DNA of 45,916 nt from an uncultured Gammaproteobacteria bacterium (GTDB taxonomy: Bacteria > Patescibacteriota > Patescibacteriia > 2-12-FULL-60-25), in assembly GCA_964443315.1 (NCBI GenBank), contig CAYUCP010000003.1, forward strand, positions 1 through 45,916. Reading direction: 5' to 3'. The notes beneath the pieces are model-generated. The model worked only from the letters and a program-made list of their open reading frames with translations. It was not told where the DNA came from and made no database searches. The first letter of the stretch is position 1; each line of letters begins with the position of its first letter. Shown in pieces: positions 7,446 through 45,693 of this stretch. The position numbers were made by a program, and so were the translations under genes.

Positions 7446-7627
7446 AAACAATCCATAAAGGACAACCGTTCTGTGACACTACAATCGCAAGCGAACTTTT
7501 CGCGGCTCCAGTAATATGCCTACCCATAGACAAGGCATGGCTAAGGGCATTCGCACGAGAGCTTCTTGATGGCGCCCGCGCTTCATTTAACGATGGACAG
7601 AACACTACCTCCGCTTCGCCTAAATAG
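7442..7627 (+). CDS. Hypothetical protein
   Basis: 61-aa ORF coupled to the upstream gene. Confidence 0.45.
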   Translation: MKTIHKGQPFCDTTIASELFAAPVICLPIDKAWLRAFARELLDGARASFNDGQNTTSASPK

Positions 7628-7850: not shown

Positions 7851-7852
7851 AA

Positions 7853-8095
7853 ATGAAACCAAAATCCGCAGTTACGGTTGGAGAACTACGAAAACAAGGG
7901 AACACAGTTTTGCGCCTCATTGAAGTCAAACGAGGAATTGCCGAGGTCGCGTTCGATTCCGCTACCCTGACAAAGATCATTCCCTTGCCCTGGTATGTCA
8001 CTGCGCTCAATGAACAGGGAGAACGGTCGTCTATTTCGCTGGAGGATTGGAAAAAACTACCCGCGATACAAATCTCCAATCCTCCAGCGACGTAG
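7853..8095 (+). CDS. Hypothetical protein, last gene of the rightward operon
   Basis: 80-aa ORF. Confidence 0.55.
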   Translation: MKPKSAVTVGELRKQGNTVLRLIEVKRGIAEVAFDSATLTKIIPLPWYVTALNEQGERSSISLEDWKKLPAIQISNPPAT

Positions 8096-8155
8096 CAATT
8101 CTTAATTGTCTTACGCGGCCGATGTGTAGCGGCGGCGGGGCGGTTTTTTGGGGTT

Positions 8156-8169
8156 TGCCAGTACTGGCA
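8156..8169. repeat. 14-bp perfect palindrome TGCCAGTACTGGCA, copy 1
   Basis: Read directly; lies in the convergent intergenic region. Confidence 0.95.
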
Positions 8170-8272
8170 CGGCTCAAACCGCGCACATTTGCCGCTGGAA
8201 TACCCCCAAAACGCATCCAGAACGCGCTGGGCGCGTCGAAACGCCTTGTCCCCGACAAATTCCCATGCGCTC

Positions 8273-8300
8273 AAAAATGCGCCAAAACGGGCGCATTTTT
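8273..8300. terminator. Bidirectional rho-independent terminator between convergent operons
   Basis: aaaaatgcgcc (8273..8283) pairs with ggcgcattttt (8290..8300); A/T runs on both sides. Confidence 0.7.
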
Positions 8301-30579: not shown

Positions 30580-31162
30580 AAATCTTATTAAGCGCGGCGG
30601 TAAACTCCGGCGACAATCCGCCCTGCACCTTTACCGCCCCGCCGTCCTTGCCGGTGAGTTCCTGACGGGTTACGCCAACGGGCATTTCAAGAACGCCGCG
30701 CATAAATTCGCGGGCGGTTTTCAGCATATCCGCCGCCTTTCCAAATTCACTGGCATGGGCGGGCGCAAACACAATCGGGCGTCCTTGCTCGTCCTTTGCC
30801 GTCGCCATGCGCTCGTTTAAGGCAAGCAGCTTTAGCGCCTTTGTTTCAAGCGCGTCCGCATGCCGCAGCTCCCGGTCTAATTGCTCCTCGCGCAATCTCT
30901 CGCGCCGAATAGCCCATTTCCGTTCCCGCTTTTCGCGTTCCTGCTGGCGGATGGCGGCCATGTGCGCATCGTAGGCGGCGGAACGGTCAACCCAATCGTG
31001 GCGCGTTGACCACGTGCGCCAAGTGCCGTTTGTCTTTCCGTTTTTATTCCGCTTTTGATACGCCGCATCAATACTGCGCTCGTCAAATTCAAGCGTGTAA
31101 TAAGCCTCAAACGCGGCATAGGCTTCTTTGCTCTCGCCCTTGCGCCGCTCCCATGCGTTCAT
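30560..31162 (-). CDS. terS: Terminase small subunit (putative)
   Basis: 200 aa, basic coiled-coil centre, immediately upstream of and overlapping terL. Confidence 0.55.
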   Translation of the reverse strand: MNAWERRKGESKEAYAAFEAYYTLEFDERSIDAAYQKRNKNGKTNGTWRTWSTRHDWVDRSAAYDAHMAAIRQQEREKRERKWAIRRERLREEQLDRELRHADALETKALKLLALNERMATAKDEQGRPIVFAPAHASEFGKAADMLKTAREFMRGVLEMPVGVTRQELTGKDGGAVKVQGGLSPEFTAALNKIYGGANG

Positions 31163-32709: not shown

Positions 32710-32987
32710 CTGGCTGTTTCCTTCTCCAAGATTTTTATCGCCTCGCCCGCGCCAAACACCACAAACACGGACGCCCGCGCCTCGTTGTGCCACCTCGCTT
32801 CGTCTGGCGTGAGTTTCCCGCCGGGCGACTTCACCTCGAACACAAACCACTTGCCGCGAAACGAGACCAGCAAGTCCGGGCACCCATCGCCTATATTTGC
32901 AATAGATTGCACGAATGCACCCATGTCACGTAATGCGCGCACAATCTCGGACTGGTTAGCGTCAACTTTTCCGTATATGCGCATCAT
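32706..32987 (-). CDS. VRR-NUC / PD-(D/E)xK nuclease
   Basis: GCPDLLVSFRGKWFVFEVKSPGGKLTPDEARW; start coupled to the lysin stop. Confidence 0.65.
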   Translation of the reverse strand: MMRIYGKVDANQSEIVRALRDMGAFVQSIANIGDGCPDLLVSFRGKWFVFEVKSPGGKLTPDEARWHNEARASVFVVFGAGEAIKILEKETAR

Positions 32988-34627
32988 TACCCCTTTGGCT
33001 TCATCGCCTTGCGCAATGCCCGCGCCCCAACCCATGCGCCGGCCTTCACAAACGGCGCTGGGCCAAATCTGCGGACGTCATAGCCATTGGCCCAGCGCGG
33101 GTCACCGTTATTGCCGTAACAAAATATCGCACCACCGCGCACAGGCGATGGATACTCGCGCCCGTCCACCACCACCGGACGGGATTGAATCTCTACCACC
33201 CGCGCGATGTGTTTTGTTACATCTTCAGTGGTTGCTTTGTGCGCGGGCAGTCCGCCCACGCCCTCCTCATCCACGCCGCACTCACCAAAGAACACACCCT
33301 GCCCCTTGTCCGGCGCAAACCCGCACACGGTAAAGTAAAACTGCCAGCGGCGTTCGTGCCAGACCAAATCTTCGTCGTAAATATGCGCCATGCTCGGCGC
33401 GTAGGCGTGATAGTCAAGTCCAATTTCGCCCGCGTCCCACAATGGCGTGTAATACTGCCGAATGAGCCGCACGGTGTCGGCGTATTCAGGCGCGCCCAGC
33501 GCAAATTGCGGGTTTCCCACACTGAACGTGCCAAGCGCGATAACAGCCTTGCATTCCATCGCCCGCGCCTTGCGCACGAACTCCACTTCCACCCTCATGC
33601 GCTCTTCCAGCTCGCGCGGCGATGAACCCCAGCTATCGGCCTCGTTGAACAACGTCAAAACCAAATTGGACGGCATATCGGCAGACACGCCAAGAGCGCG
33701 AATAAAGTCGTCCGCCGTCCATCGGGAGTTGCCAATATAGACACGAGACATGCAATACCCGTCGGGGTGATTGCGCGCAAAATCGGCGGCCTCTCTGTTG
33801 GCGCCCATCACCAGCGCGAATTTGCAGCCGGCCCGCTCGGCCTCGGCCAGAGCGCCGGTGTCGGTGATAACGTTCACCCCAACCAAAACCTTGCGCGGCG
33901 CGGCCACAACCGGTGCGGGTTGCGCCGTTCTGGCGGCGAGGTAGTCGGACTTCACCCATCCCTTGGCCCAGCTCGGCGGCTCATCTACAAGCTGAATCCG
34001 CGACCAGCCACTTTGTTCCTCCACCACCGTCATGGCTCGCCCCTCGCCCATCACCCCAATTTTTTGCGCGTTGATGGCTCCAGAGGCGCGGACATTCACA
34101 CCCATACCATCCGTTCCGGTGACAATCAGCGCGGCGGGCAAACTTCGCGCAGTGTCGCGGATGCCAACCTTGACTACAAACCCGCCCCAGTATTTACCCG
34201 CACCGGTTCTGATGGCCGTATCCAGCGTAGCCGCGTCCGCCACATGGTTGCCGTGCGCGGCATACGGGTCATGATATTCGGTGTCGCTCAGGCGCACAAT
34301 CCAGTGCCCAAATGTGCGCCCGCTTTGGTCGTAACGTTGCGCTACTGGCAACATCGCATAGTCAACCAGCGCGATGCAAGGGTAAGGCGCGACAGGCGAA
34401 AGAATCGGGTCGCATCCCATCTTTTTTAGCATGGCCGCCAGTTCATTAGCGGTCGTGCCGTTGTCCTCCGCGTCAATCTGGCGCGCGGTGGGCAGTTCTT
34501 TGCTCCATTGCTCCACCGTGTCGGTCAGCCCCTTGCCGACTGACCGCGCCAGCATGAGGGCGCAAGCCGGGCCGCAGTCGTTGCGCGGCGCATTGTTGAG
34601 CTGAGAAATAAAAGGAACGGTTGTCAT
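32987..34627 (-). CDS. Three-domain lysin: papain-like (C39-like) cysteine peptidase, SH3b, and clan GH-A-like glycoside hydrolase
   Basis: NDCGPACALML...GHWIV for the peptidase. GVNVRASGAINAQKIGVMGEGRAMTVVEEQSGWSRIQL...GWVKSDYL for SH3b. TLFNEADSW and FFGECGVD look like GH-A acid/base and nucleophile motifs. Confidence 0.65.
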   Translation of the reverse strand: MTTVPFISQLNNAPRNDCGPACALMLARSVGKGLTDTVEQWSKELPTARQIDAEDNGTTANELAAMLKKMGCDPILSPVAPYPCIALVDYAMLPVAQRYDQSGRTFGHWIVRLSDTEYHDPYAAHGNHVADAATLDTAIRTGAGKYWGGFVVKVGIRDTARSLPAALIVTGTDGMGVNVRASGAINAQKIGVMGEGRAMTVVEEQSGWSRIQLVDEPPSWAKGWVKSDYLAARTAQPAPVVAAPRKVLVGVNVITDTGALAEAERAGCKFALVMGANREAADFARNHPDGYCMSRVYIGNSRWTADDFIRALGVSADMPSNLVLTLFNEADSWGSSPRELEERMRVEVEFVRKARAMECKAVIALGTFSVGNPQFALGAPEYADTVRLIRQYYTPLWDAGEIGLDYHAYAPSMAHIYDEDLVWHERRWQFYFTVCGFAPDKGQGVFFGECGVDEEGVGGLPAHKATTEDVTKHIARVVEIQSRPVVVDGREYPSPVRGGAIFCYGNNGDPRWANGYDVRRFGPAPFVKAGAWVGARALRKAMKPKG

Positions 34628-35508
34628 CTGCGCATCTCCAGAATCGGGATGTCCATCTGCCCGACAGATTGCATCCCGGCATTTGCAACGCCAACGTCAA
34701 ACGCGGACTGAACGTTTTTCCCTTCGGCCAGCGCCATGTAAAACCCATCAGAAAACCCGATGGCGGATGGGTCTTGCACCGCCTTGCGCATCCCCACCGC
34801 CCACTGCGAAACACTCATCAACGGAGCGAGGTTTTGAGCGGAATAACAAGCATTGAGAACCACTCCAGTCACGGGCATGGGTTTCAAAAGGCGCGAAATG
34901 GCTTCCAGCGTGACGGCTTTTGGCTTTTGCGTCTCATCTTCCAGGTAAATTTCTCCGTCAGCGCCATGTCCCGCAAAATGCAAAATGGTTGGGCGAAAAT
35001 CTAAAATGGCGCGGGTGATGTCGTGCGGTCGCGCGGCCTGTATCGCCCGAAACTCGAACCCTGTCTTGCGTAGAGCGTCCTCTACCACCCGCGCTTCCAC
35101 ACCGGTGTTGAGAATCGCGCCGGGCATGGATGAAGTAGACACGAAAAGAACAGCGCGGCGCGAGGCGGCGGAAGAATTTTTCTGCGATGACTTTTTGCCT
35201 GTTACCTGTTCAAACAAAAACTCCACCCGACTGCGCAAAGCCGCGTTCTCATTTTCGAGATCGGCGATTCTGCGTTTCAAGCCATCTATTTCCAGTAAAA
35301 ACGTTTCTTTTTCGGCTTTCAAGGTGTCTTTTTCGGCTGCGAGGGTTTTGTTTTGCTTTAGCAACTCCTCGTTCTCTTTTTTGTAATACCTCACCACCTC
35401 ACCCCCGTCCTCTCCGCCCTTCCGCTGAAACGGTTTCAAAAACAGCACGGCGGTTAAAACGAGCAGCCCAATCAGAGATATGACACCGAGAATTACCCCC
35501 AAATCCAT
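34624..35508 (-). CDS. Membrane-anchored coiled-coil protein with a C-terminal CHAT-like (caspase-fold) domain
   Basis: Start at MDLGVILGVISLIGLLVLTAVLFL (TM helix). Coiled coil at ELLKQNKTLAAEKDTLKAEKETFLLEIDGLKRRIADLENENAALRSR. Then ILHFAGHG and VVLNACYS (His/Cys dyad positions) and GFYMALAEGKNVQSAF. Confidence 0.6.
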   Translation of the reverse strand: MDLGVILGVISLIGLLVLTAVLFLKPFQRKGGEDGGEVVRYYKKENEELLKQNKTLAAEKDTLKAEKETFLLEIDGLKRRIADLENENAALRSRVEFLFEQVTGKKSSQKNSSAASRRAVLFVSTSSMPGAILNTGVEARVVEDALRKTGFEFRAIQAARPHDITRAILDFRPTILHFAGHGADGEIYLEDETQKPKAVTLEAISRLLKPMPVTGVVLNACYSAQNLAPLMSVSQWAVGMRKAVQDPSAIGFSDGFYMALAEGKNVQSAFDVGVANAGMQSVGQMDIPILEMRR

Positions 35509-35831
35509 CACACCTCTCCTTTGCCACGATGAATTACAAGTAACACGTAGCCAAGAAAGGTGATGATGCCGTGCAAATAGGCCAGTGTTGCCCACATTTC
35601 AATCATGCCGCCCGGTAAAAAGTGCGTTCCCCAAAGATTTAAGTCCAGCACCAGCACCACGTAAAGCCGATAGATAAAAACATGCGCGGCCATCGTCAAC
35701 GCTGCTAGCAAGTCGCGGCCATCAACGATACGCTTTCTCCAGGCATAAACAAGACAGGCAAACAGTCCGCCCGCCGCCAGCGCCACGACCAGTCGCATAA
35801 ACATCAAAACATCAAAATCCGCCGCGCTCAT
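35508..35831 (-). CDS. Three-TM membrane protein (holin-like)
   Basis: 107 aa with three hydrophobic helices, sitting in the lysis cassette. Confidence 0.5.
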   Translation of the reverse strand: MSAADFDVLMFMRLVVALAAGGLFACLVYAWRKRIVDGRDLLAALTMAAHVFIYRLYVVLVLDLNLWGTHFLPGGMIEMWATLAYLHGIITFLGYVLLVIHRGKGEV

Positions 35832-35834
35832 TGC

Positions 35835-36605
35835 CTACCCGACCTCCACCTGTGGCTCTTGATCAAATCCGCCCTTGCGCAAAAGCGTGCGGCACCGCGC
35901 CAAAATCTGCGCGTCCGTGCCGCGTTTGGCGGCGGCGTTCAACCACGCATAGGTAAACGCCCCGCACGGCTTGCCGCCAATCACTGCATCGGCGGCGGTC
36001 TGATCGGCCCGGCACGCGCTCCAAATTCGGCGGTTGATGCGGCCCGCCCGTTCCAGCTCTTTCACGCGAGACGGCGTGAGCAGGCCGCGGGGGCGCGGCT
36101 GGGTAATGGCGCGGCCATCGGGCTGGGGAAGGTATCGGATGGCATAGTGCAACGCCGCGCGGCTTACCGTGCCGCTGTGGCACGAATCGGCCCACATTTG
36201 CACGTCCACATCCGCAGGAAAGCTGGCCAGCCATTTGTTAATGTCGTCATCCACAAGAAGCTGCACCCATCGCCCGTTTGCGACGTGGGTGTCCCACGTC
36301 GCAATAGCCTCGTCCCATTTGTCTGTCTCGTCCGCGTTTTTGTCCGGCACCTGCGTGCCGTGCGAGGAGATGCTGAAGGCGATACGCTTCACTTCGCTAC
36401 GCTGAGCGGCAATCGCGGCCCGGCCCATCCATTCCGCGATGCGCGCCAAGCCAGCCGCTTCTCCGGTGGCCGTTTGCACCTCGTAGCCCGCTTTGGCGAG
36501 GTAGTCGGCCATGTTACGCATGTCGTTTTCGCACCCGTTCAGGCGCGGAATTTGCGGGCTGAGAAATGCGTTGAGGCCCACACACAGGGCGATGCTGTCA
36601 TTCAT
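35835..36605 (-). CDS. Peptidase C14 metacaspase/orthocaspase-like protease
   Basis: Start at MNDSIALCVGLN with a ggagg SD. FSISSHGTQ supplies the catalytic His, ADSCHSG is the hallmark Cys motif, and the p10-like SACRADQTAADAVIGGKPCGAFTYAW follows. Confidence 0.75.
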   Translation of the reverse strand: MNDSIALCVGLNAFLSPQIPRLNGCENDMRNMADYLAKAGYEVQTATGEAAGLARIAEWMGRAAIAAQRSEVKRIAFSISSHGTQVPDKNADETDKWDEAIATWDTHVANGRWVQLLVDDDINKWLASFPADVDVQMWADSCHSGTVSRAALHYAIRYLPQPDGRAITQPRPRGLLTPSRVKELERAGRINRRIWSACRADQTAADAVIGGKPCGAFTYAWLNAAAKRGTDAQILARCRTLLRKGGFDQEPQVEVG

Positions 36606-36951
36606 CTTGCGCCTCCGGTGGCTGAATATCATCCGGGAATTTACCGATGATGCGCACGGGGATGGTTGTGCTATTCCCACCCCATGCACTTGTTCGCGCG
36701 GTTGGGGTTTTAACATTCAACCCGCGCGAGGTGAGTTCGCGGCTGATGGCGCGTTGCACCAGTGGCTCAGCCTCATCGTTGATGGTGAACGCCACGATCA
36801 ATAGCCCCACAATCGGCTGGGCGATAAGCCAAATCTGGTGCAGCATGTCTGCCGCGTCTGGCGCGGCGTATTTGCCCGCCACCAAAAACACAATTTTTAC
36901 GATGGCATCCACCACCGCCGTGATGAATGCGCGGGATTTAAGCAATTTCAT
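36598..36951 (-). CDS. Holin-like protein (two TM helices)
   Basis: AFITAVVDAIVKIVFLVAG and IWLIAQPIVGLLIVAFTI, followed by a charged C-terminal tail. Confidence 0.5.
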   Translation of the reverse strand: MKLLKSRAFITAVVDAIVKIVFLVAGKYAAPDAADMLHQIWLIAQPIVGLLIVAFTINDEAEPLVQRAISRELTSRGLNVKTPTARTSAWGGNSTTIPVRIIGKFPDDIQPPEAQDE

Positions 36952-37324
36952 TCGCGGCCTCCAAATCCTTGTAAATCACGGCCATGCCAGCCTCGACCAG
37001 CTGGGTGTTCACGCTCTTGTCCTCGCCGTCCAGCCACACCTCGGCCAAAACGCGCCCGTGCTGGTCGCGGCTGTTCTTGACGACCAGCGTCACCGGTTTG
37101 TCGCCCAACTTTTCCTTGAGCCATGCGGTGGCTTTGTCGCCATTGGATGTTCCCGCCGGCGGCGCGTCCACGCCAGTGAAACGCACATATTCGCGCATAG
37201 ATACTTTTGTCCATGCGGGCAGCCCGACATCCGCCACGATGGTGTCGCCATCCACCACCCGGACATTGGCCGCCGGGCAAATGGAGAGCGCGGCAGACGC
37301 GGCTTTGAGGATTCCGTTAAGCAT
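36938..37324 (-). CDS. Staphylococcal nuclease (SNase)-like thermonuclease, probably exported
   Basis: VRVVDGDT...VRFTGVDAPP...QHGRVLAEVWLDG...NTQLVEAGMAV; hydrophobic N-terminus MLNGILKAASAALSIC. Confidence 0.7.
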   Translation of the reverse strand: MLNGILKAASAALSICPAANVRVVDGDTIVADVGLPAWTKVSMREYVRFTGVDAPPAGTSNGDKATAWLKEKLGDKPVTLVVKNSRDQHGRVLAEVWLDGEDKSVNTQLVEAGMAVIYKDLEAANEIA

Positions 37325-37616
37325 ATTTCACCTTCTTTTTTGCGTTGGCGAGGGCGTGCCGCTCTGCGTGGCAACAGTCGCACAACACCTCTAAATCTTG
37401 TGGTTGCTCATCGCCCAGGTGGGCGTATGTTTTGTGATGAACTTCCAGCCCGCGCGTGTTGCCGCACTCGTGACAACACCCACCAGCGAGGGCAATGGCT
37501 TTCTCGCGCGTTTCCTGCCAGTGCGCGGTTTTCAAATAAATGGCGGCGTAATTCCGGCGACGCAGTTTCGTTATCTGCGCGTCAACCCAACGAAACATCC
37601 ACATCCGCCAGTCCAT
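37317..37616 (-). CDS. HNH endonuclease
   Basis: CCHECGNTRGLEVHHKTYAHLGDEQPQDLEVLCDCCHAERH; start coupled to the upstream stop. Confidence 0.8.
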   Translation of the reverse strand: MDWRMWMFRWVDAQITKLRRRNYAAIYLKTAHWQETREKAIALAGGCCHECGNTRGLEVHHKTYAHLGDEQPQDLEVLCDCCHAERHALANAKKKVKYA

Positions 37617-38170
37617 CACTTCACCGCCTTCATGCCTTCGCTCACGGCGATGGCATACCGCCACGCGCGGGCGCAAATACCGCCCGCCCGCGCAAATGCT
37701 GGCATGGCGCGGCTGTCGCGCCCGCCGCCGATGACGCACTTAGACGTGCCGCCGTTGTAAACGCGCAGGGCGCACATCAAATCTCCCTTGCAGTAGCGGT
37801 CGCGGTTCTCGCGCAAAATCTTTGCGGCGGCGTAGACGTTTGCCTGCGCATCCATGAGTTCAATTGTGGTGGGGCGGTCTGTGAACCACACGCGAGGCAG
37901 TAGCGTAGTATCGCGCGGCACAATCTGCGCCAGCCCAATTTCACCACTCGCGCCGATGAAATCACCCTGACACCGACTTTCTTTCCACACAATCGCCCAC
38001 ACCGCCGCGCGCGGGATGCCCGTTTGCTTTTCAAACAATTTCAAGGATTCATCTGCAAACGAGTAGGCCGCGATGCAGTGATTCACGTCTGGGCGCGGCG
38101 TGGCCGCGCTGGCCGCGTTGGGGTGCGCGAAAATGAAAGCGAAAGTTAAAAGCGCGAGAATAAATCTCAT
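37616..38170 (-). CDS. Secreted lytic transglycosylase (SLT domain)
   Basis: Signal-like MRFILALLTFAFIFAHPNAASAA; WKESRCQ...GLAQIVP...VYNGG. Start at 38170 because the longer ORF would run through a terminator. Confidence 0.7.
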   Translation of the reverse strand: MRFILALLTFAFIFAHPNAASAATPRPDVNHCIAAYSFADESLKLFEKQTGIPRAAVWAIVWKESRCQGDFIGASGEIGLAQIVPRDTTLLPRVWFTDRPTTIELMDAQANVYAAAKILRENRDRYCKGDLMCALRVYNGGTSKCVIGGGRDSRAMPAFARAGGICARAWRYAIAVSEGMKAVK

Positions 38171-38175
38171 AAAGT

Positions 38176-38224
38176 GAAAAACAAAAAAGCGCGGCTGGCA
38201 CAATCTCTTGTGCATCAGCCGCGC
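38176..38224 (-). terminator. Rho-independent terminator upstream of the SLT gene
   Basis: Stem gcgcggctg/cagccgcgc (38189..38197, 38216..38224) with an inner gcacaa/ttgtgc stem, followed on the minus strand by ttttttgttttt. Confidence 0.65.
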
Positions 38225-38269: not shown

Positions 38270-38494
38270 TTATTCTTTCGCGGGCATCATAGCCGCGCCA
38301 AGCGGCAACTGTATTTTTGCGCCCCGGCGCTCAATAGCCGGGGTTAGCTCTCGCGCATTGTGGATGGCCAGGCTTAACACCACCGTGCCAGACAAATCAC
38401 CGCCCGTGCGCAACAAATCGCGCACGGCAATCATGCACATGCGTTCAAGTTCGGTTTTTGCGGAAACAGCTGCCACGCCATAAATATAGCACAT
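38270..38494 (-). CDS. Hypothetical protein
   Basis: 74-aa ORF. Confidence 0.45.
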   Translation of the reverse strand: MCYIYGVAAVSAKTELERMCMIAVRDLLRTGGDLSGTVVLSLAIHNARELTPAIERRGAKIQLPLGAAMMPAKE

Positions 38495-38579
38495 CCGTTC
38501 TGCCTGTCAATAATCAACTGCCCTATGCCGCGCAACTCGGCGGCGGCAACATCTCAGATGGCATCGAGATTGCCCTGCG

Positions 38580-39014
38580 TCAACTCGCTGGTTCAATATC
38601 TCTGAATAGCGAGTAATTCTCAATATCCAAAGAAGCGCGTTCGGGGTCGTCAATCGGGCACCACCCACCCCCGGCATCAAACGGCTCATCCTTGAGCCGC
38701 CACAAATACACGACTACAATCTCCCCGTTGCGCACGGCAAGTTGCAACCCCTTGCGCGCCACGAGCGAGGTGCGTGTGCCGTCCGTTTCAACCCCGGTCA
38801 GCGTCCGCGCCGCGCCAGACGCATCGGCGGCGGCGATGAGGAGTTTCTCATCACCGAGCATCTCATAAGCGCGGCGAATGCCGTGCGTCAATCCTTCCCC
38901 ATCCGCGAGTTTCACAAAAAAATCGCGTTCATGCTCGCGCAAAGTTATTTGCCTGACGCGAGTTTTTTCCCCAGCGGGCTTTGCCGCGTTTTTATTTCCT
39001 ATTTTTCCTGCCAT
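38580..39014 (-). CDS. Hypothetical protein, possibly an N-terminal RHH-like DNA binder; first gene of the leftward block
   Basis: MAGKIGNKNAAKP...VRQITLREHERDFFVKLADGEGLTHGIRRAYEML; promoter geometry suggests a leaderless mRNA. Confidence 0.5.
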   Translation of the reverse strand: MAGKIGNKNAAKPAGEKTRVRQITLREHERDFFVKLADGEGLTHGIRRAYEMLGDEKLLIAAADASGAARTLTGVETDGTRTSLVARKGLQLAVRNGEIVVVYLWRLKDEPFDAGGGWCPIDDPERASLDIENYSLFRDIEPAS

Positions 39015-39022
39015 TTCAAGCT

Positions 39023-39051
39023 ATTGTATTGATTTCTAGCTATAAAGTCAA
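39023..39051 (-). promoter_or_regulatory. Promoter of the leftward block (leaderless geometry)
   Basis: Minus strand reads TTGACT (39051..39046), 17-nt spacer, TACAAT (39028..39023), then 8 nt to the ATG at 39014. Confidence 0.6.
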
Positions 39052-39057
39052 GGGAAC

Positions 39058-39073
39058 CTAGCCACTTGGCTAG
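39058..39073. promoter_or_regulatory. Operator-like inverted repeat CTAGCCA-ct-TGGCTAG
   Basis: Perfect 7-bp arms between the divergent promoters. Confidence 0.5.
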
Positions 39074-39096
39074 TATTTTCAAAAATTGCTGTGTTA

Positions 39097-39139
39097 TTGT
39101 CAATTTTGCTATTGACAAGATTTATTTTATAGCTATAAT
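39097..39139 (+). promoter_or_regulatory. Promoter of the rightward orphan operon with an overlapping inverted repeat
   Basis: TTGACA (39112..39117), 16-nt spacer, TATAAT (39134..39139). The inverted repeat ttgtcaat-N6-attgacaa (39097..39118) covers the -35 element. Confidence 0.65.
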
Positions 39140-39179
39140 ACGACCATCAACCAAAAATAAAAAAAACAAGGAAAATAAA

Positions 39180-39377
39180 ATGACAAAACAAGAAGCCAAA
39201 AAACTCGCAAAAGAAGCCATCGAAAATGCAACCCCGCAAGGTTACGATGTTGCTGGTTTAACAGTTGTGTATCTTGAAAAGAACGGCAAGTATGCCGTTG
39301 CCGACAACGGAGAGGAAGTCGGAAACCTCGATCGCAACAATGCAATCCGCATTATTGTTGAGAATCTAACCAACTAA
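39180..39377 (+). CDS. Hypothetical protein (65 aa)
   Basis: ATG at 39180 preceded by caaggaaaa; AT-rich. Confidence 0.55.
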   Translation: MTKQEAKKLAKEAIENATPQGYDVAGLTVVYLEKNGKYAVADNGEEVGNLDRNNAIRIIVENLTN

Positions 39378-39431
39378 AAACCAACGCGCGACCTGTTGAA
39401 AAAGAAAGCATAAAAATATTTCTTCCCGCAG

Positions 39432-39647
39432 ATGAGCTTGAGCCTGCGGGAAATGGAGGAAATCATGGAAGAGCTGCACGACAAAAGAACCATCAAAATC
39501 AACGATAAAACATATCAAATCGCGGTTTCCCGCGAGGCATACTCCCCAGATAAATTGAAAGTCTGGGGGCATGGCAAAGAGTGGTGTCAGCGTTCAGATG
39601 AAACACGCGCCGAATTTGTCCAGCGCGTCAAGAGCGATACTAAATAA
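39432..39647 (+). CDS. Hypothetical protein (71 aa)
   Basis: ORF in the operon. Confidence 0.5.
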   Translation: MSLSLREMEEIMEELHDKRTIKINDKTYQIAVSREAYSPDKLKVWGHGKEWCQRSDETRAEFVQRVKSDTK

Positions 39648-39656
39648 CAAAAATTC

Positions 39657-39687
39657 GCCCCGCCGATGATGCAGTCACCGGCGGGGC
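39657..39687 (+). other. Intercistronic GC-rich stem-loop
   Basis: gccccgccg (39657..39665) pairs with cggcggggc (39679..39687); same arm family as 3775..3799 and 4397..4424. Confidence 0.6.
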
Positions 39688-39741
39688 ATTTGAGAGGGAT
39701 TAACTCTCCCTCGCATTCTAAAGCAAAACAGAGGGATTAAC

Positions 39742-40533
39742 ATGAACACTCAACACATTCGCATAACCGATTTTGAAGCAACACCTCCTAAAAAATCGCG
39801 CGTCGCCGTCACGAGTGATGGGGATAGAATCACCATCACCCACATCGGGGGAAAAGCCCCCCGGCTGACCTCTCAATTGCTGTGGAAAGCAATTGAGGTC
39901 GCCGGAATGAGCATTTCAGAATCCTTAGAGCTGTCATCTAAAACTCGCGTGAACCCATTCAAAGTGGTGCGCCGCAAGGGAATGAGCGGCGCGTGTGACT
40001 GGAAGCTCGTCGTCAGACAAAACGATGAGACGCGAGATTATCCAACAAAAGCTCTCGTTCACGAGAGCATGCTTGGAAAAATGAACGAGCCTATCCGCGG
40101 GATGTGGGTAGGCGATCTCGCAGAGATCGCCCAGTCGATTGAGAACTGGGAGAGCTTTCTGCTCTCCCAGCCGGGGCAACAAGAGTTTTTTATTCCCTCT
40201 CCCCCGGCGTGGGAGGAAATACAGGGGATTCAGGATCAATGCGCATCTGACTCTAACGTTGCAGCGTTACGCGTGTTGATGAACGCACATCATCACGAGT
40301 CTTGCTGGCAAAACGCCCAGCAGGTATGGCACGAGAGAAAGGACGATTTTATGGCGGCGATCGCCACCTACGTCATGAATGGCGGGGTAATATCCGCCGA
40401 GGAAATTGAAATTGTCAAGAATCTTCCGCGCCCGGACACGTGGCCGGAAGAGTTGGAGGAACACTGGCGCGGGCAGTGCGCCGCCAATGCGACCATCATG
40501 GCCGCCGCCAATGACAACAAGGAGGTGGAATAA
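39742..40533 (+). CDS. Hypothetical protein (263 aa)
   Basis: ATG preceded by agaggg; no recognisable motif. Confidence 0.6.
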   Translation: MNTQHIRITDFEATPPKKSRVAVTSDGDRITITHIGGKAPRLTSQLLWKAIEVAGMSISESLELSSKTRVNPFKVVRRKGMSGACDWKLVVRQNDETRDYPTKALVHESMLGKMNEPIRGMWVGDLAEIAQSIENWESFLLSQPGQQEFFIPSPPAWEEIQGIQDQCASDSNVAALRVLMNAHHHESCWQNAQQVWHERKDDFMAAIATYVMNGGVISAEEIEIVKNLPRPDTWPEELEEHWRGQCAANATIMAAANDNKEVE

Positions 40534-40742
40534 TGAAAATCTATCTAGCCTCTGACAAAGAATTGTTCTTGAAAGAAATTTCTCGCGCAAAGGAAGTTTT
40601 ACGCAAGAGGGGTTCACGAGGAACAGCGGAGAAACTTAATGATGCGACAAATTGGTTTGATGCTGGCGTAATTGTCCTGCACAGAAAGAAAAATTTAATC
40701 TTCAAGTGTTGCCATTTTTCTCATGCCCACCCCGTATTCTGA
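40533..40742 (+). CDS. Hypothetical protein (69 aa)
   Basis: TAATG coupling to the upstream stop; AT-rich. Confidence 0.5.
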   Translation: MKIYLASDKELFLKEISRAKEVLRKRGSRGTAEKLNDATNWFDAGVIVLHRKKNLIFKCCHFSHAHPVF

Positions 40743-40746
40743 GCGC

Positions 40747-40983
40747 ATGAGCAAACAAAAACAATATCCCCGCGAAGAGTTTGATGATGACTTGCTGACC
40801 GTTCTAGAGCAGGGCAAGGCAGTCGGTATCCTGCAAGGTATCAACGTGCTGTTAATTGCGCCGGAGAATTTGCAATCACATCACCATATTTTGAGTGCAG
40901 CAGAAGCCGCCAGGCGGCTCAACCTCAAACACCAGCCAGAGCCGCGCGGTCTGCGCAGGCTTTGGCGCTGGCTGGTGGACTAG
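40747..40983 (+). CDS. Small helix-turn-helix protein (Xis/AlpA-like, putative)
   Basis: MSKQKQYPREEF...HHILSAAEAARRLNL. Confidence 0.4.
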   Translation: MSKQKQYPREEFDDDLLTVLEQGKAVGILQGINVLLIAPENLQSHHHILSAAEAARRLNLKHQPEPRGLRRLWRWLVD

Positions 40984-41132
40984 AATACAAATACCCTATC
41001 GTGGTTGAAAGTCGGCTTCATGCCGTGCTCTCGGAAACGAGACTAGGCCGCGCCGGGGTGCATCGCCCTGCCGCCCGCGAACGCCCACGCGCCGCGTGGG
41101 TCAAACGTGTAGCGGCGGCGGGGCGACTCGCC

Positions 41133-41213
41133 TACTGCTACTGCTACTGCTACCCCTCTCCCGCGCGTTTTAATCGGGTAGGGGAGGGTTTTCTGCGGTA
41201 GCAGTAGCAGTAT
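41133..41213. repeat. Inverted repeat built from the hexamer (TACTGC)n, spanning the stop codon of the FtsK-like gene
   Basis: Left arm ctactgctactgctactgctac lies downstream of the stop. Right arm gtagcagtagcagta lies in the last codons. Inner ccctc/gaggg pairings also occur. Confidence 0.85.
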
Positions 41214-42498
41214 GAGTAGACATTGCCGCGTCATACAACTTAGATAACCCGCCTTCCACCAAATTCCCGGCAAGCGGACGACCAGTCACCAATCGCACGA
41301 ACATGGACTTGCTCAGTTGCCCGCGCGCATCGCCAAGCGCAACGTCCGCCTTTATCGCGTTGGCAAGAACATACTCTCCCACGATCAACCGCCGATCATC
41401 CTCGTTCGCCCCATTCCACAATTCGCGCAGCGCGGCAGGTTTTGTGGGCGCGGCGGCGTGGCGATATTCCGAACGTGGTGGAGCGGGCGGCGTCCAGTCG
41501 GCGGGGACATCTGGCAGTTTTGTTCGCAACACGCGAAACCGCTCCGGGTTGCCGCCGCCAACGAACATGGCCTCGCCCTTCAGTTGCAACTTTTCCGCGC
41601 CCGTGTTTTCATAACGCCCTGTGGCTGCGCGGGCGTCGCCAGCGGTGGCAGTGTGCAGCACGATGAACGCGCTATTTGTGCGCACGGGCTGGGGTATCTC
41701 GCTTGAGGAGGGGCGCTGGGTGGCGCACACCAGATGAACACGCAACTCGCGCCCAACCCGCGCGATACGCGCGACCATCTCTGAAAATTCTGACCCGTTC
41801 ACCACGCACGAATCAGCCAACTCATCTATTAAAACAATGATGCGCGGCGGCGGAGCGGGGATGACCCGGCCATCCATGATGCGCACGATCTCGCGCATCC
41901 CGGCAAGCTGCTCGCTGGCAGAACGCGCCACGAACATGAGATTTTTGCGCAGCGCGTGGGCGAGCGGGTCAGGGTTGCGCGGCTTGCGGTCGAAGAGCGC
42001 GAACATTGTGCCCGCGCGGTTGTCTCGCGCCATGCTGACCGCCATCGTGCGCATGAGTTCCGTTTTGCCGTAGCCGCTTGCGCCGCTGATAAGCAGATGC
42101 GCCACGTGTTTGTGATCAATGGGCAGACAGATGGCCTCGCCTTGCACACCCACGCCGACCAACGCGCCGCCGATGGGAATGCTGTCGAGCATTTTTACAT
42201 CCGCCCATTGCTCTGGCATCTCCAGCGGAATTTCAAAGCGCACATAGCCATTTTCTTGCTCCACAAATAAACGCGAAATTTTTGCCTGCAGACACAAATC
42301 GTTTACGCGGGCTTTGACCTGCTCCAGCGACGTGACCTTGCCGCCCTCTTTCATCCGCGCCGGGCGAAAATACAGGCGCAGTGCGGATGGGTAGACCACC
42401 TGCGAGACAAACTCACAGGGGACAAAATAAGCAACGGACGCATTTTGCAGGGCGCGACCAATAGCCAGCGCGTCGCGCCGCGCCTCGTCCATGTTCAT
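41170..42498 (-). CDS. FtsK/SpoIIIE-family dsDNA translocase ATPase
   Basis: Start at MNMDEARRDAL (ATGA overlap upstream). Walker A ISGASGYGKTE, Walker B RIIVLIDELAD, and VHLVCATQRPS. Confidence 0.8.
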   Translation of the reverse strand: MNMDEARRDALAIGRALQNASVAYFVPCEFVSQVVYPSALRLYFRPARMKEGGKVTSLEQVKARVNDLCLQAKISRLFVEQENGYVRFEIPLEMPEQWADVKMLDSIPIGGALVGVGVQGEAICLPIDHKHVAHLLISGASGYGKTELMRTMAVSMARDNRAGTMFALFDRKPRNPDPLAHALRKNLMFVARSASEQLAGMREIVRIMDGRVIPAPPPRIIVLIDELADSCVVNGSEFSEMVARIARVGRELRVHLVCATQRPSSSEIPQPVRTNSAFIVLHTATAGDARAATGRYENTGAEKLQLKGEAMFVGGGNPERFRVLRTKLPDVPADWTPPAPPRSEYRHAAAPTKPAALRELWNGANEDDRRLIVGEYVLANAIKADVALGDARGQLSKSMFVRLVTGRPLAGNLVEGGLSKLYDAAMSTHTATATAENPPLPD

Positions 42499-42956
42499 GG
42501 GCGTCCTCCAAGAACACGCGCGGGAGGAGCTTCCTCGAACATCGGCGCGGCCATCGCGTATTGATTCTGCGGGGGTGGAAGCTGGCCGCGCGGTTGCTGC
42601 TGGGGGAAGCTGTCCATCCAACCAGCCGGCATGTTCTCAATATCCATTTGCGCGGCATCGCTTTTGCCGCGCCCGCCCAGTTTTAGGGTTGGGGCGTTGA
42701 TATTGTTGCCGCGAAACATGCTCACCAGAGACACAACGACCACGCTCAGCCCGACCGGCAGCATCAACGCCGCCGCGCCAAACAGAATGGTTTGCAGCCC
42801 GCGCGAAGCCTCGCGCTGGCCCAGCACGATGGCGCGCTGGTCTGGCGTCAGCGATTCAATCTGGCGCGATTCGTTTGAGCTGATGATGGCCGAGCCGCCC
42901 ACAACGACGGCGGCGCACACGGCCATGACAAGCAAAAAGTTTGTGAATGATTTCAT
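42495..42956 (-). CDS. Membrane protein (two TM helices), Gln/Pro-rich tail
   Basis: FLLVMAVCAAVVVGGSAII and ILFGAAALMLPVGLSVVVVSLVSMF. Confidence 0.6.
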   Translation of the reverse strand: MKSFTNFLLVMAVCAAVVVGGSAIISSNESRQIESLTPDQRAIVLGQREASRGLQTILFGAAALMLPVGLSVVVVSLVSMFRGNNINAPTLKLGGRGKSDAAQMDIENMPAGWMDSFPQQQPRGQLPPPQNQYAMAAPMFEEAPPARVLGGRP

Positions 42957-42965
42957 GTCTCTCCT

Positions 42966-43682
42966 TTATGCGTTAGCCGCCGCGCGGGTTTGCCACGCGG
43001 CCATCTGCCGGATGCGCGGCGCGCTTACGCGGAACGCCCGCGCAGCTTCGTTGCTGTTAGCCCCCGCGTTAGCCGTCAGCCAGGCGCGTAAGCTGTCATC
43101 TGTAAGCGCTAACGGCTCGCTTACACCTGCCGTTAGCTGTTTTTGCCCCGCCATTTGCGGGATATTTTGCGGCGCGGCGTCAGGAACGCCCTCAAAACGC
43201 ATTGGCATGGCTTCTGGCTGGCTTTCGGTCACCGTCTCCACCTCAATCGCCCCCCTCACGGTCGTGCGCGTTTTGGGGGCATTGGGCGAAGTGTTAGCGC
43301 GGGAATGGGCGGCGATAGGCAAAACCACCACCGCTAACGTGGGCGCCAGCGCCGCGCACAGAACAGCGAGCCATCCTTGCGCGCCGACTAACGCGCTTAC
43401 GGTCGCGGCGGTCGAGGTTACGATAGTGCCCGTTAGCAACCCAAACAGCAGCGGCGACCAGTTACGCACCAACTCGCCCGCCGCGATAATGATAACGGCG
43501 GCTAACACCAGCCCGAACGCGCCGGTCGTTAGCCCGTGAATCATTCCACGGGCGTTCTCCCACTCCACCCACTTCGAGCCATACAGTCCCAGACCGATTT
43601 CAACGAAGCGCGGCGCGTCCACCAACGCGCCCAAAAAAGCCACGAGCAATTCAAGTCTTGATAGCTTCACTTCTTCCTCCAT
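42966..43682 (-). CDS. Polytopic membrane protein with a C-terminal HTH (DUF2637-like, putative)
   Basis: Start at MEEEVKLSRLELLVAFLGAL; about 4 TM helices; C-terminal SNEAARAFRVSAPRIRQMAAW. Confidence 0.5.
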   Translation of the reverse strand: MEEEVKLSRLELLVAFLGALVDAPRFVEIGLGLYGSKWVEWENARGMIHGLTTGAFGLVLAAVIIIAAGELVRNWSPLLFGLLTGTIVTSTAATVSALVGAQGWLAVLCAALAPTLAVVVLPIAAHSRANTSPNAPKTRTTVRGAIEVETVTESQPEAMPMRFEGVPDAAPQNIPQMAGQKQLTAGVSEPLALTDDSLRAWLTANAGANSNEAARAFRVSAPRIRQMAAWQTRAAANA

Positions 43683-44104
43683 CCTTGCGGAATCGGGATG
43701 CCCGCCCTGCGCATCGCCCATTCTGTGTTGCGAGATTCTTTTAATACGCTGGTCACCGGAATACCCGCGCGAAGCAAAACATATTCGGCCCACTTCACCT
43801 GGCGACGTTTGACGCAAAAGTAGAGTTCATGGCTCGTAGCGCCGCGATCCCACAAGCGAACTCCGAATTTTTTGAGAAGGCGCTCAATTTCGATACCGCT
43901 GTGCCCATCGTGTCGAGACACGCGGATGGTTGGCGCGTTGTGTGACACCACACATGACACAAGCTCGGTGAGGATGCCGACCACGCCGCGCTTTTTATAA
44001 GCCTTGCGCCAGTCGGCATTTATGAACGTGGATATCATGCCCTCGATGCGGTCTATATAGTCCATGCCGAGAACGGTGTCATAGATGAGGTCGGGAATGT
44101 TCAT
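43667..44104 (-). CDS. Hypothetical protein
   Basis: 145-aa ORF. Confidence 0.55.
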   Translation of the reverse strand: MNIPDLIYDTVLGMDYIDRIEGMISTFINADWRKAYKKRGVVGILTELVSCVVSHNAPTIRVSRHDGHSGIEIERLLKKFGVRLWDRGATSHELYFCVKRRQVKWAEYVLLRAGIPVTSVLKESRNTEWAMRRAGIPIPQGWRKK

Positions 44105-44371
44105 CTATTTAGCCTCCTTTTCGTAAATCGTCTCCACCGCGTATCCCTCATTCGAGAGATACAACCTGGCCCACCCCAACCCGCTGGCGATGCGCCCGGC
44201 GCACTTTTCAGCATCACTGCGCGTGCGCGGGTCGTCTATTGCCATCGTGATCTTACCGGTCATGCTCAGGTCAAACATGTTGCTGCCCCGCACGGCGCGG
44301 ATGCCCGCAATCCGCCGGGCAGGGCGGGCGGCAACGCCCATAAACGCCGTGTCAATATTGCCGTAACTCAT
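44105..44371 (-). CDS. Hypothetical protein
   Basis: Start at MSYGNIDTAF with a ggagg SD and an ATGA overlap. Confidence 0.5.
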   Translation of the reverse strand: MSYGNIDTAFMGVAARPARRIAGIRAVRGSNMFDLSMTGKITMAIDDPRTRSDAEKCAGRIASGLGWARLYLSNEGYAVETIYEKEAK

Positions 44372-44481
44372 CTGTCCTCCAAAGACCAAAAAACAAGCCC
44401 GGCAATTGCCAGCGCCAGCACGCCCAGCGCGGCGGCAATACCAAACGCGGTCACGATGACCGCGACAAGCTGGCTAGTCAT
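44368..44481 (-). CDS. Small single-TM protein (37 aa)
   Basis: MTSQLVAVIVTAFGIAAALGVLALAIAGLVFWSLEDR; ATGA overlaps at both ends. Confidence 0.5.
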   Translation of the reverse strand: MTSQLVAVIVTAFGIAAALGVLALAIAGLVFWSLEDR

Positions 44482-44846
44482 GGCTGCACCTCGTTGACGA
44501 TGCGCAACAACACATCGGCATGACATGGTTCATTCAAAGCGCACCAACACGCCAGATTTTTGCCTCGTAAATAGTGTTTGCAAATAATGGCTTTTTGCAT
44601 TCCAGCCCAACCGTCTACACCATGCTTCTCTTCACAGGTTTGCCGAAATTCGTAAAGCGAACTTCCAACATCTACAGAACTTGGGTTAAACCATTTCTCA
44701 AACAACGCCACGCACTGTTGAGCATTGCCGTGAACGCCAACGCGAAACGGATTTCCCCAAGGGCTTCCGCGTCCAACATATTTTGTGTCGGGCGGCATCC
44801 GCCAACCCTTAGTGCGCTTGCGTTGAATTCTTTTAGGATTTGCCAT
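44478..44846 (-). CDS. DUF4326-domain protein
   Basis: YVGRGSPWGNPF...LRGKNLACWCALNEPCHADVLL. Confidence 0.7.
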   Translation of the reverse strand: MANPKRIQRKRTKGWRMPPDTKYVGRGSPWGNPFRVGVHGNAQQCVALFEKWFNPSSVDVGSSLYEFRQTCEEKHGVDGWAGMQKAIICKHYLRGKNLACWCALNEPCHADVLLRIVNEVQP

Positions 44847-45693
44847 TGCTTGATCCTCTCCTCGCAGCACGTTCAGCAATTTGCTGGCGCGCGCGTTCCT
44901 TGGCGGCTTCGCGCATTTCATCGGTGTATTGAATTTGCGTTCTGCGCGAAACACCACGCTTGGATTGCTTGCGTTGGTATGTCTTCGCCGTCTTCTCGCC
45001 CTGCGCCGCCGCGCCCTCACTTGGCATCTCCAAAATCAGCGGGAGCGGGTCTTGCAGCACACCCCGCGCCCGGGTGCGCAGACGCACAAACATGATCTTG
45101 GCGGGTTTTCGCCACGCCTCAGCCTCTTTTTGCGTTCTGACGCAAATCGCCCGCGCATCGTCCAGCGTCATTACGTTTTTGACGATGGCGGGCGCGATGT
45201 CTTTGACCAGCATGTCCCTAAAGGGCGGGGTTATGCCATACTCGCCCAGCAGCGCGGCTACGGAATCTGAAATTTTTTTGGCGCGCGCGTCATCATCATC
45301 AAATTCATCATCAGTACGTACTTCATCAAGAGGGGGACCAGTCCGGACTGGTGCGGACTGGTGCGGACTGGTGCGGACTGGTGCGGACTGGTTGCCGCTC
45401 ATCGTCATGGAATCGGAGCACGCTTGCAACTTGTGGCCGCGCTTTCCCTCCGCTGTCTCTTGTGTTCCACGCCCGATGATTTTGTATCGGCGAGCCATGC
45501 CCGCCTCTTTGTCCACTGCGATGATCTCACCGGCATACGCCAGCTCCCGCATCGCCTCGGCGATGTTGGTGCGCCCCACGCCCGCCGCCTGGGCAATTTG
45601 CGCCCAGCTTGCGTTCGTGATGCCGTCATCGCCCGCCAGCCCGCGCAGAGCGTCTAACGCCCGCCGAGCCTTGCGGCTTAGTTCTGGTTGCAT
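44833..45693 (-). CDS. Replication initiator-like winged-HTH protein carrying internal iterons
   Basis: N-terminal ITNASWAQIAQAAGVGRTNIAEAMRELAYAGEIIAV (wHTH), iteron array in the middle, acidic DDEFDDDD stretch. Confidence 0.55.
   Translation of the reverse strand: MQPELSRKARRALDALRGLAGDDGITNASWAQIAQAAGVGRTNIAEAMRELAYAGEIIAVDKEAGMARRYKIIGRGTQETAEGKRGHKLQACSDSMTMSGNQSAPVRTSPHQSAPVRTGPPLDEVRTDDEFDDDDARAKKISDSVAALLGEYGITPPFRDMLVKDIAPAIVKNVMTLDDARAICVRTQKEAEAWRKPAKIMFVRLRTRARGVLQDPLPLILEMPSEGAAAQGEKTAKTYQRKQSKRGVSRRTQIQYTDEMREAAKERARQQIAERAARRGSSNGKS
45341..45390. repeat. Five tandem 10-bp iterons (gtccggactg, then gtgcggactg x4): candidate replication origin
   Basis: Read directly. The first unit forms the 16-bp palindrome accagtccggactggt (45337..45352). 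An A/T-richer stretch lies at 45270..45330. Confidence 0.85.

Follow-up and report, generated by a model that had tools for sequence, protein, structure and literature searches.

An FtsK-type ATPase encoded with small membrane proteins in the replication operon of a tailed phage

The operon and its phage

The DNA analysed here, which we call the window, is a contig of 45,916 bases (CAYUCP010000003.1), and the subject of this report is an operon within it that encodes an FtsK-type ATPase together with several small membrane proteins. Both ends of the window carry the same 55-bp exact direct repeat, which indicates that it is a complete, circularly closed genome of ~45.86 kb. This genome is that of a tailed phage, with genes for the small and large terminase subunits (TerS and TerL), portal, head morphogenesis protein, scaffold, major head protein, tape measure and fibre-like proteins on the minus strand at ~8–31 kb. 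The operon is a single, tightly packed unit running on the same strand from 45693 down to 41170, in which starts and stops either overlap (three times as ATGA, and by 14 and 16 nt) or abut throughout (Table 1).

An initial annotation had placed at 41170–44481 a coupled leftward operon closed by an FtsK/SpoIIIE ATPase, which was also said to encode a two-transmembrane (2-TM) protein, a polytopic membrane protein with a C-terminal helix-turn-helix (HTH), a 37-aa TM peptide and a DUF4326 protein, with an iteron-bearing initiator-like gene upstream. Sequence motifs, matches to Pfam, PHROG and PDB profiles and the ATGA overlaps all agree with the first of these claims, and every gene named is present on the minus strand, with that for DUF4326 lying just outside those coordinates and two further genes, for p145 and p88, which had gone unmentioned, lying inside them. 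The initiator-like gene is likewise in place with 10-bp repeats inside it, and its profile matches are weak (PHROG 270 and 678, replication initiation/O-like, E 2e-4 and 6.5e-4).

Table 1. Features of the operon and its surroundings, with positions in the window
Feature	Position	Strand	Basis or remark
Phage's own terminase	29191–30579		
DUF3800-VIII RNA motif (Rfam RF03075)	41062–41127	+	full length; 55.6 bits against a gathering score of 40.2
Long hairpin spanning the ATPase stop codon, ~30 bp	41125–41232		minimum free energy −66 kcal/mol, z −4.9
FtsK-type ATPase, 442 aa	41170–42498	-	last operon gene; ATG overlaps p153 stop as ATGA
p153, 153-aa 2-TM hairpin protein	42495–42956	-	TM segments at 7–25 and 57–75; Pro/Gln-rich tail
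p238, 238-aa polytopic membrane protein	42966–43682	-	3–4 TM segments, cytoplasmic linker, C-terminal HTH-like stretch
p145, 145-aa soluble protein	43667–44104	-	undescribed family that recurs beside FtsK-like genes
p88, 88-aa protein	44105–44371	-	61–96% identical in all relatives; no family match
p37, 37-aa single-TM peptide	44368–44481	-	hydropathy; shares ATGA with each neighbour
DUF4326 protein, 122 aa from the ATG at 44846	44478–44846	-	Pfam E 2.4e-24; PHROG 464
Replication-initiator-like gene, 286 aa	44833–45693	-	N-terminal winged HTH; first clearly assignable operon gene
Candidate origin iterons, 5–6 tandem 10-bp repeats (GGACTGGTGC)	45335–45395		inside initiator gene; repeat search

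No close DNA relative was found among the INPHARED phages, and searches of phage and plasmid proteins returned generic FtsK matches alone, at ≤35% identity. A large protein database held a handful of metagenomic relatives, which share one architecture and fall into four diverged sub-lineages (L001, L002, L006–8 and L009–15). Their common order is initiator, small genes, homologues of p88, p145 and p238, 2-TM protein, ATPase, a strong hairpin, a variable island on the opposite strand and the late genes, with a J-domain protein inserted in the operon of some. Since the ATPase cassette holds the same place in all four sub-lineages, it is a backbone element of the early operon and not a moron. The initiator homologue in this position is 67% identical in L012–15, and an HTH_36 protein takes its place in L010/11. 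The DUF4326 protein probably starts at 44846, which gives it the length of its 75%-identical, 122-aa homologue of L002, while p37, for which the lone family match was a sub-threshold one to DUF5654 (E 0.044, 14.2 bits against a cut-off of 23.8), is kept in L002 (59% identity) and has a 38-aa open reading frame (ORF) at its place in L012. Several of the relatives are ~47.5-kb contigs that are circularly permuted, with a start that differs by sample, and have no host flanks; virion DNA would give the same picture.

Within this group, L001, whose ATPase is 81% identical to that of the window, encodes, 2 kb downstream, a large serine recombinase of the Resolvase family (453 aa), and L012 has an HTH_3/HTH_31 repressor-like gene that is missing from the window, which together indicate that the lineage includes temperate members. 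The lack of an integrase reported initially for the window itself is confirmed, as neither strand yielded a recombinase or integrase when all large ORFs were scanned against Pfam, and tblastn with the L001 enzyme found no match to a serine recombinase. However, because cassette and integrase coexist in L001, the cassette in the window is not an integrase substitute. L001 also differs from the window by a large rearrangement, in which the ATPase operon is joined to a segment homologous to the far end of the second early operon of the window (L001 1791–2050, window 6678–6937), with methylase, serine recombinase and tail-fibre genes lying beyond the junction.

The ATPase is an FtsK-type motor with an exchangeable C-terminal domain

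The ATPase carries the Walker A motif GASGYGKT, the Walker B motif VLIDE and the motif TQRPS, and all of its catalytic motifs are intact. It matches Pfam FtsK_SpoIIIE (PF01580) at E 2.4e-14 (53.8 bits against a cut-off of 24) and PHROG 1358 at E 1.5e-26, while its best match among solved structures, by PDB profile, is the FtsK motor (E 1.4e-24), in an alignment that spans both alpha and beta domains. Likewise, the AlphaFold model, with a mean predicted local distance difference test (pLDDT) score of 79.5, superposes on FtsK alpha+beta motors over ~370 columns (Foldseek E 1e-19, template modelling score 0.6–0.69), after which Foldseek ranks TcpA of pCW3, EccC/EssC and HerA at a distance. The protein is made up of an FtsK alpha+beta motor (residues ~1–340), a linker and an unrelated helical C-terminal domain of ~80 aa, and hydropathy analysis of its 442 residues gave no TM segment. 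On profile and model evidence, then, the protein is a true translocase motor of the FtsK type and is separate from the phage terminase. A role as packaging ATPase was also considered and ruled out, as TerS, TerL and portal are encoded elsewhere in the genome.

We compared the motor (residues 1–340) with 30 other FtsK-like proteins by pairwise score. The highest scores, 103–119 bits at 31% identity, were to short soluble FtsKs from the loci L046, L047 and L049, all from Anaerolineae metagenome-assembled genomes (MAGs), and from metagenome contigs P0009–11, which are chromosome-like and have no assigned taxonomy. Other phage sub-lineages scored 76–104 bits, canonical gamma-domain FtsKs 53–78 bits and actinomycete plasmid or phage FtsK-like proteins 58–68 bits, with Tra of pIJ101 the lowest of the 30 at 34 bits (25% identity over 237 aa). 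Thus, pairwise scores put the Chloroflexota short FtsKs at the top and pIJ101 Tra last, while a neighbour-joining (NJ) tree gave the motor no firm position on an FtsK phylogeny; we rely on the scores because bootstraps in the tree were ≤25. Some of the short FtsKs are in chromosomal surroundings, beside rpsT, ParAB or YidC, and every short-FtsK locus that could be read has a small 2-TM hairpin gene nearby. Scans with patterns taken from the ATPase alignment found no relative in IMG/VR or GTDB genomes.

The C-terminal domain (residues ~350–435) is modelled as four helices with a pLDDT of 72–83. Its identity to the domain of P0007 is 76%, where the two motors share only 28%, and yet it falls to 44–50% for P0002, P0005 and P0006, which have motors 84–92% identical to that of the window; between the window-type and L009-type domains no relationship could be detected. 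This mismatch indicates that the C-terminal domain is an exchangeable module, and it is a natural candidate for recognition of a target or partner. Identification of the domain as FtsK gamma was ruled out, with no match to PF09397 and an hhalign probability of 0.1% against 14 gamma domains. In addition, the domain and the hairpin that follows it have been swapped as a block between sub-lineages (window 41170–41440, L002 5220–5545), which places a recombination breakpoint in the linker between motor and C-terminal domain.

Membrane partners, p145 and a recurrent cassette

None of p153, p238, p145 and p88 has a Pfam match at E ≤0.1, and the membrane proteins matched no model of Pfam, NCBIfam, PHROG or PADLOC, DUF2637 being included in the families scanned. 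Across the relatives, the identity of p153 closely tracks that of the motor (r = 0.92, ten genome pairs), whereas the identities of the ATPase C-terminal domain (r = 0.36), p238 (r = 0.2) and p145 (r = −0.03) do not. It follows that recombination breakpoints flank the 2-TM/motor pair and do not separate its two genes, and this co-variation would fit a co-adapted complex of the two.

The p145 family comprises 273 clusters in a 50% representative library and has no Pfam match and no sequence match in the PDB. Its AlphaFold2 model (pLDDT 87) is a helical hairpin with a ferredoxin-like domain, for which Foldseek found no match below E 0.02. Defining the cassette as an FtsK-like motor, a small 2–3-TM protein and a p145-family gene within ~2 kb, we found it in the window, L002, L006, L009, L012, L046/47/49, L051, L054, L064, L065, L067 and L068. 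A search of IMG/VR with p145 alone returned five distant viral contigs, four of which have an FtsK-like ATPase (435–476 aa) and a 2–3-TM protein directly beside the p145 homologue, in varying order, while the fifth contig ends at that point. Five GTDB loci also have FtsK-like, TM-protein and p145 genes together (L046, L047, L049, L051 and L054), and in the three from Anaerolineae (L046/47/49) the order is short FtsK, 2-TM protein and p145 homologue. The module described initially can therefore be found in related phages, in other viral contigs and in Chloroflexota genomes, with a gene order that varies, and this co-occurrence indicates that motor, small TM protein and p145 form a functional set conserved across Chloroflexota and their viruses. 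The phage cassette is related to the Chloroflexota host gene set of short FtsK, 2-TM protein and p145, to which it bears a much closer likeness than to a plasmid-transfer module of actinomycetes. Two tandem LexA-like genes and a gene for a small Cys-rich protein precede the cassette in L046, L047 and L049 (~3600–8300 in each), a possible sign of SOS-type control or of an integrated element.

The remaining membrane protein, p238, is encoded immediately ahead of the 2-TM/ATPase pair in all the relatives, and its alignment shows conservation of the TM segments and of an HTH-like stretch, AARAF.VS.PRIRQM. Six homologues are present in the database, all of them unannotated. By uniting TM segments and an HTH, p238 resembles p16.7 of phage phi29, a membrane protein that binds phage DNA, and the cassette could on this analogy anchor a replication or packaging factory to the membrane, with the ATPase remodelling or resolving replication intermediates and no transport across a septum. 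The cassette does come directly after the initiator and iterons, p238 immediately follows the HTH_36 initiator in L010/11, and insertion of a J-domain protein in the operon of relatives would also suit such a factory. However, FtsK alpha/beta motors are established dsDNA translocases and are not known as replication remodelers, and the recurrent core consists of motor, 2-TM protein and p145, with p238 absent from the cellular and IMG/VR versions, and we regard this alternative as quite unlikely.

Link to Chloroflexota

A scan for p145 in one genome per species gave 39 loci, all but three of them (36/39) in Chloroflexota MAGs, with Anaerolineae, Thermoflexales, Caldilineae, Roseilinea and Chloroflexia represented, and the database entry for one p238 homologue is labelled as an Anaerolineae MAG. 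From this distribution, the phage very probably infects Chloroflexota, a phylum in which many lineages, Anaerolineae among them, grow as multicellular filaments. The closest loci in the p145 scan are lone chromosomal genes in housekeeping surroundings, for example beside genes that, judged by eye, resemble the CobS and CobU types.

With short soluble FtsKs of Anaerolineae MAG loci and chromosome-like contigs as the closest cellular kin of the motor, and p145 homologues as ordinary chromosomal genes in many Chloroflexota, the phage copy might compete with or replace the split FtsK of its host, so that septation is stalled or the nucleoid re-routed and a larger undivided compartment results. The place of the cassette in the early operon would agree with this, as would the classing of phage FtsK-like proteins under host takeover in PHROGs, which is annotation only. 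Takeover of this kind is unlikely in our view, since the phage proteins have their own membrane partners and a distinct C-terminal domain, which point to an autonomous machine and not a mimic, and a simple dominant-negative inhibitor would not need intact catalytic motifs.

Structures at the end of the operon and comparison with plasmid transfer modules

The hairpin across the ATPase stop codon has outer arms formed by (CTACTG)n/(CAGTAG)n hexamer repeats and a G+C-rich inner stem, and the repeat motif is unique to this place within the window (five matches against 0.3 expected). A nested hairpin also follows the ATPase gene in L002, L006, L009 and L012, built on other short repeats ((CCTA)n in L009/L012), and a T-run after the inner stem in the last two makes it a classical intrinsic terminator. 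The DUF3800-VIII RNA motif abuts the hairpin on the strand opposite the ATPase gene, between that gene and the variable island. It has the same place and relative orientation in L006 (3042–3109), L009 (5098–5163) and L012 (12837–12904), and is also present in L069 (7810–7862). Its outer stem is nearly invariant, with compensatory changes at three pairs, while neighbouring proteins are only 27–60% identical; no DUF3800 gene was detected near the motif. In one IMG/VR relative the gene ahead of the motif encodes a methylase instead of an FtsK, which indicates that the motif is linked to the border of the variable island and not to the ATPase as such. Most simply, hairpin and RNA motif are transcript-end structures.

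The initial annotation had likened the operon to the Tra/Spd modules of actinomycete plasmids. In Streptomyces, TraB and Spd proteins spread plasmids from cell to cell, and an equivalent process here would have a membrane-anchored pump at septa or junctions push phage dsDNA into neighbouring cells of the filament. Such spread is suggested by the joining of an FtsK-type dsDNA pump with membrane proteins and a membrane-anchored HTH, by inferred hosts, Chloroflexota such as Anaerolineae, that are largely multicellular filaments, by the lack of an integrase in this genome and by the repeat-bearing palindrome at the 3' end of the ATPase gene, which recalls the clt loci of some Streptomyces plasmids. 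At clt loci, a C-terminal winged HTH of TraB binds 8-bp TRS repeats. In the clt comparison, the phage has a helical C-terminal domain in the model and a hexamer-repeat palindrome at the end of the ATPase gene, which is also terminator-like; given its terminator-like inner stem, the T-runs in relatives and the adjoining RNA motif, ordinary transcript-end functions would suffice. Using blastp, SpdA, SpdB, KilB, orf66 and orf56 of pIJ101 gave nothing below E 0.6 against the operon proteins, and pIJ101 Tra matched the ATPase over the P-loop core only, at 25% identity, so that beyond this generic core there is no homology to Tra/Spd. Gene order in pIJ101 (NC_001387) is tra, spdA, spdB, kilB, whereas the ATPase comes last in the phage operon. 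With the weakest score of all for Tra, membrane proteins bearing no relation to Spd or DUF2637, a reversed order and an inferred Chloroflexota host, the layout is not that of an actinomycete Tra/Spd module, and by these comparisons the resemblance is one of general design, an FtsK-like pump with small membrane proteins, and not of family membership. Moreover, the same type of cassette is found in ordinary chromosomal contexts of hosts, a close relative carries an integrase, and the genome is that of a full, lytic-competent tailed phage, all of which makes conjugation-like spread very unlikely. Its most specific form, virion-free movement along a Chloroflexota filament by a functional analogue of TraB/Spd that arose independently, from the host split FtsK, with the palindromic repeats as recognition site, we consider a long shot.

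Phage-plasmid behaviour, which had also been proposed, lacks support as well. Pfam and PHROG scans of the genome found no ParA/ParB pair, plasmid Rep or addiction module, the sole ParB-like signal being a nuclease-type N-terminal domain fused to a DNA methylase. In addition, iterons inside an O-like initiator gene are the arrangement of lambda, and L001 has its serine recombinase.

Since the core of the ATPase also matches mad8, a component of a defence system in PADLOC (E 2e-19), the membrane complex might instead expel or block incoming foreign DNA, in superinfection exclusion or defence. Membrane proteins are typical of exclusion systems, and the cassette adjoins the variable island. Nevertheless, the PADLOC match is limited to the P-loop core, none of the partner proteins matches a defence model, the cassette is conserved backbone of the replication operon outside the variable island, and its cellular versions are in housekeeping contexts. 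This is the least probable of the roles considered.

Proposed role of the operon

Our preferred reading, which we put forward tentatively and at rather less than even confidence, is that the operon encodes a split, membrane-tethered FtsK-type dsDNA pump belonging to the early or replication programme of the phage, which would clear or distribute replicating phage DNA at septa. The best reading of the operon is then the one that the initial annotation had offered as a fallback, an unusual replication or segregation motor. We favour septal clearing or distribution because the cassette sits with replication genes and its cellular counterparts resemble a split divisome DNA pump.

In the mechanism that we propose, the soluble 442-aa alpha/beta motor is presumed to form a hexameric ring that pumps duplex DNA. 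p153 would span the membrane as a hairpin with both termini in the cytoplasm, where its tail would hold the motor at the membrane and so replace the membrane domain built into canonical FtsK itself, while p238 would tether DNA at the membrane through its C-terminal HTH and p145 would act as an accessory subunit. Specificity for target or partner may come from the exchangeable C-terminal domain, in place of FtsK gamma. Assembled in this way, the pump could keep replicating or concatemeric phage genomes off closing septa and distribute them to daughter compartments of the filamentous host.

Several observations weigh against this proposal. One related phage in IMG/VR (IMGVR_UViG_3300033121_001572) lacks the cassette in the 26 kb of its sequence that was examined, and linkage alone could account for part of the co-variation of 2-TM protein and motor. 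Homology of the phage 2-TM protein to the 2-TM partners in hosts was rejected (hhalign probability 0.65%), so that any capture of the cassette from a host has to be argued from motor, p145 and architecture. No DNA-binding signature could be recognised in the C-terminal domain, which is also unrelated to FtsK gamma, and a search for motifs resembling FtsK-orienting polar sequences (KOPS) gave a best 8-mer with p = 0.001 among 166, which is not significant after correction. Finally, in the NJ tree of 31 motor domains the sub-clade of the window is an unplaced long branch that is drawn to pIJ101 Tra at the midpoint root.

Should a pump of this kind indeed act on phage DNA at septa, viruses would have a new route to inheritance or spread in a multicellular host, and if phage DNA were spread from cell to cell, the boundary between phage infection and conjugation would be blurred. 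The analysis also points to a split FtsK in the Chloroflexota themselves, in which cell division and chromosome segregation are poorly understood.

Other features of the genome

The variable island (38270–41169) has a low GC content of 0.48. Within it, a perfect sigma-70-type promoter (TTGACA-16-TATAAT, 39112–39139, plus strand) is followed by five small unannotated genes that converge on the ATPase operon, and a 144-aa gene (38580–39014) is divergent. Cargo at this site differs in other genomes, with a patatin in L002 and a methylase and serine recombinase in L001. On its other side is a block of the late operon (32987–38215, minus strand) that is kept in all relatives and encodes a lytic transglycosylase (SLT), a staphylococcal-nuclease homologue, a caspase-like Peptidase_C14, a CHAT protein with a coiled coil and a 546-aa SH3/C39-like protein; such a pair of caspase-type proteases is unusual in a lysis-proximal block of a phage.

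Two DNA methyltransferases are encoded, a Dam-like enzyme of the D12 class (5786–6661, plus strand) and an N6_N4 methylase fused to the ParB-like N-terminal domain (31159–32883, minus strand), and the window has no tRNA genes. GC skew is negative throughout the window. The heptamer CGCCCGC, together with 8-mers that contain it, occurs 47 times on the plus strand against 11 on the minus strand, with the same polarity in both directions of transcription, a bias that loses significance once corrected for 166 tests.

Comparison with known systems

The replication genes resemble lambda O and its origin iterons in having an initiator with an N-terminal winged HTH and tandem repeats mid-gene. They differ in their weak phage profile matches (E ~1e-4), in the repeat period of 10 bp, compared with ~19 bp for the lambda iterons, and in that no P-like helicase loader was identified.

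With the Streptomyces transfer systems (Tra/TraB with SpdA, SpdB and KilB) the operon shares a single FtsK-like ATPase beside small membrane proteins, a C-terminal extension and a repeat-containing palindrome near the 3' end of the ATPase gene. Those systems belong to conjugative plasmids or actinomycete integrative and conjugative elements (AICEs) of mycelial actinomycetes, whereas here the host phylum is another and the genome that of a complete tailed phage. TcpA of the Clostridium perfringens plasmid pCW3 (PDB 6O1W), which has N-terminal TM segments of its own and functions within the Tcp conjugation locus, is the second-best structural class, with an FtsK-like fold (Foldseek E 5e-16; sequence profile 1.6e-9). 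Its template modelling score of 0.45–0.47 is lower than that of FtsK motors, and the phage has no other Tcp-like gene.

Canonical FtsK/SpoIIIE (E. coli and P. aeruginosa; PDB 2IUS, 2IUT, 6T8B and 6T8O) has the same alpha+beta fold, Walker A and B motifs and TQRPS. Unlike it, the phage-encoded ATPase has neither the N-terminal 4-TM domain nor the long linker in cis, lacks the gamma winged-helix domain and is apparently provided with membrane attachment by separate small proteins. Closer in design are the Chloroflexota short soluble FtsKs (P0009–P0011, L005, L046, L047 and L049), which combine a soluble alpha/beta motor with a nearby 2-TM gene and, in some loci, a p145 homologue, but which are without the ~80-aa C-terminal domain and p238 and have the order motor, 2-TM protein, p145. 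To our knowledge, the Chloroflexota short FtsK and adjacent 2-TM gene have not previously been described as a system.

FtsK-like genes are already known by annotation from tailed phages, including one Chloroflexus-associated viral contig, and in the literature found we saw no description of the split, membrane-partnered form of FtsK, the p145 family or the exchangeable C-terminal domain. Such genes occur here and there in phages, temperate and tailed, whose hosts are monoderm and filamentous bacteria, and their role is stated as unknown, with no function demonstrated (PMC3335513, PMC8597652). Those of PHROG 1358, mycobacteriophage Phoebus (gp199), the B. cereus-group phage phIS3501 (p50) and the Chloroflexus-associated viral operational taxonomic unit encode, like the window, soluble proteins of ~440 aa, but identity is 26–30% and Phoebus gp199 has no adjacent membrane partner, while the p153, p238 and p145 partners and the C-terminal domain are specific to the lineage described here. 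Compared with these phages, this lineage is an unusually well-defined version, in which a motor, co-inherited membrane partners, a membrane-anchored HTH, the p145 family and an exchangeable domain are all encoded in the replication operon.

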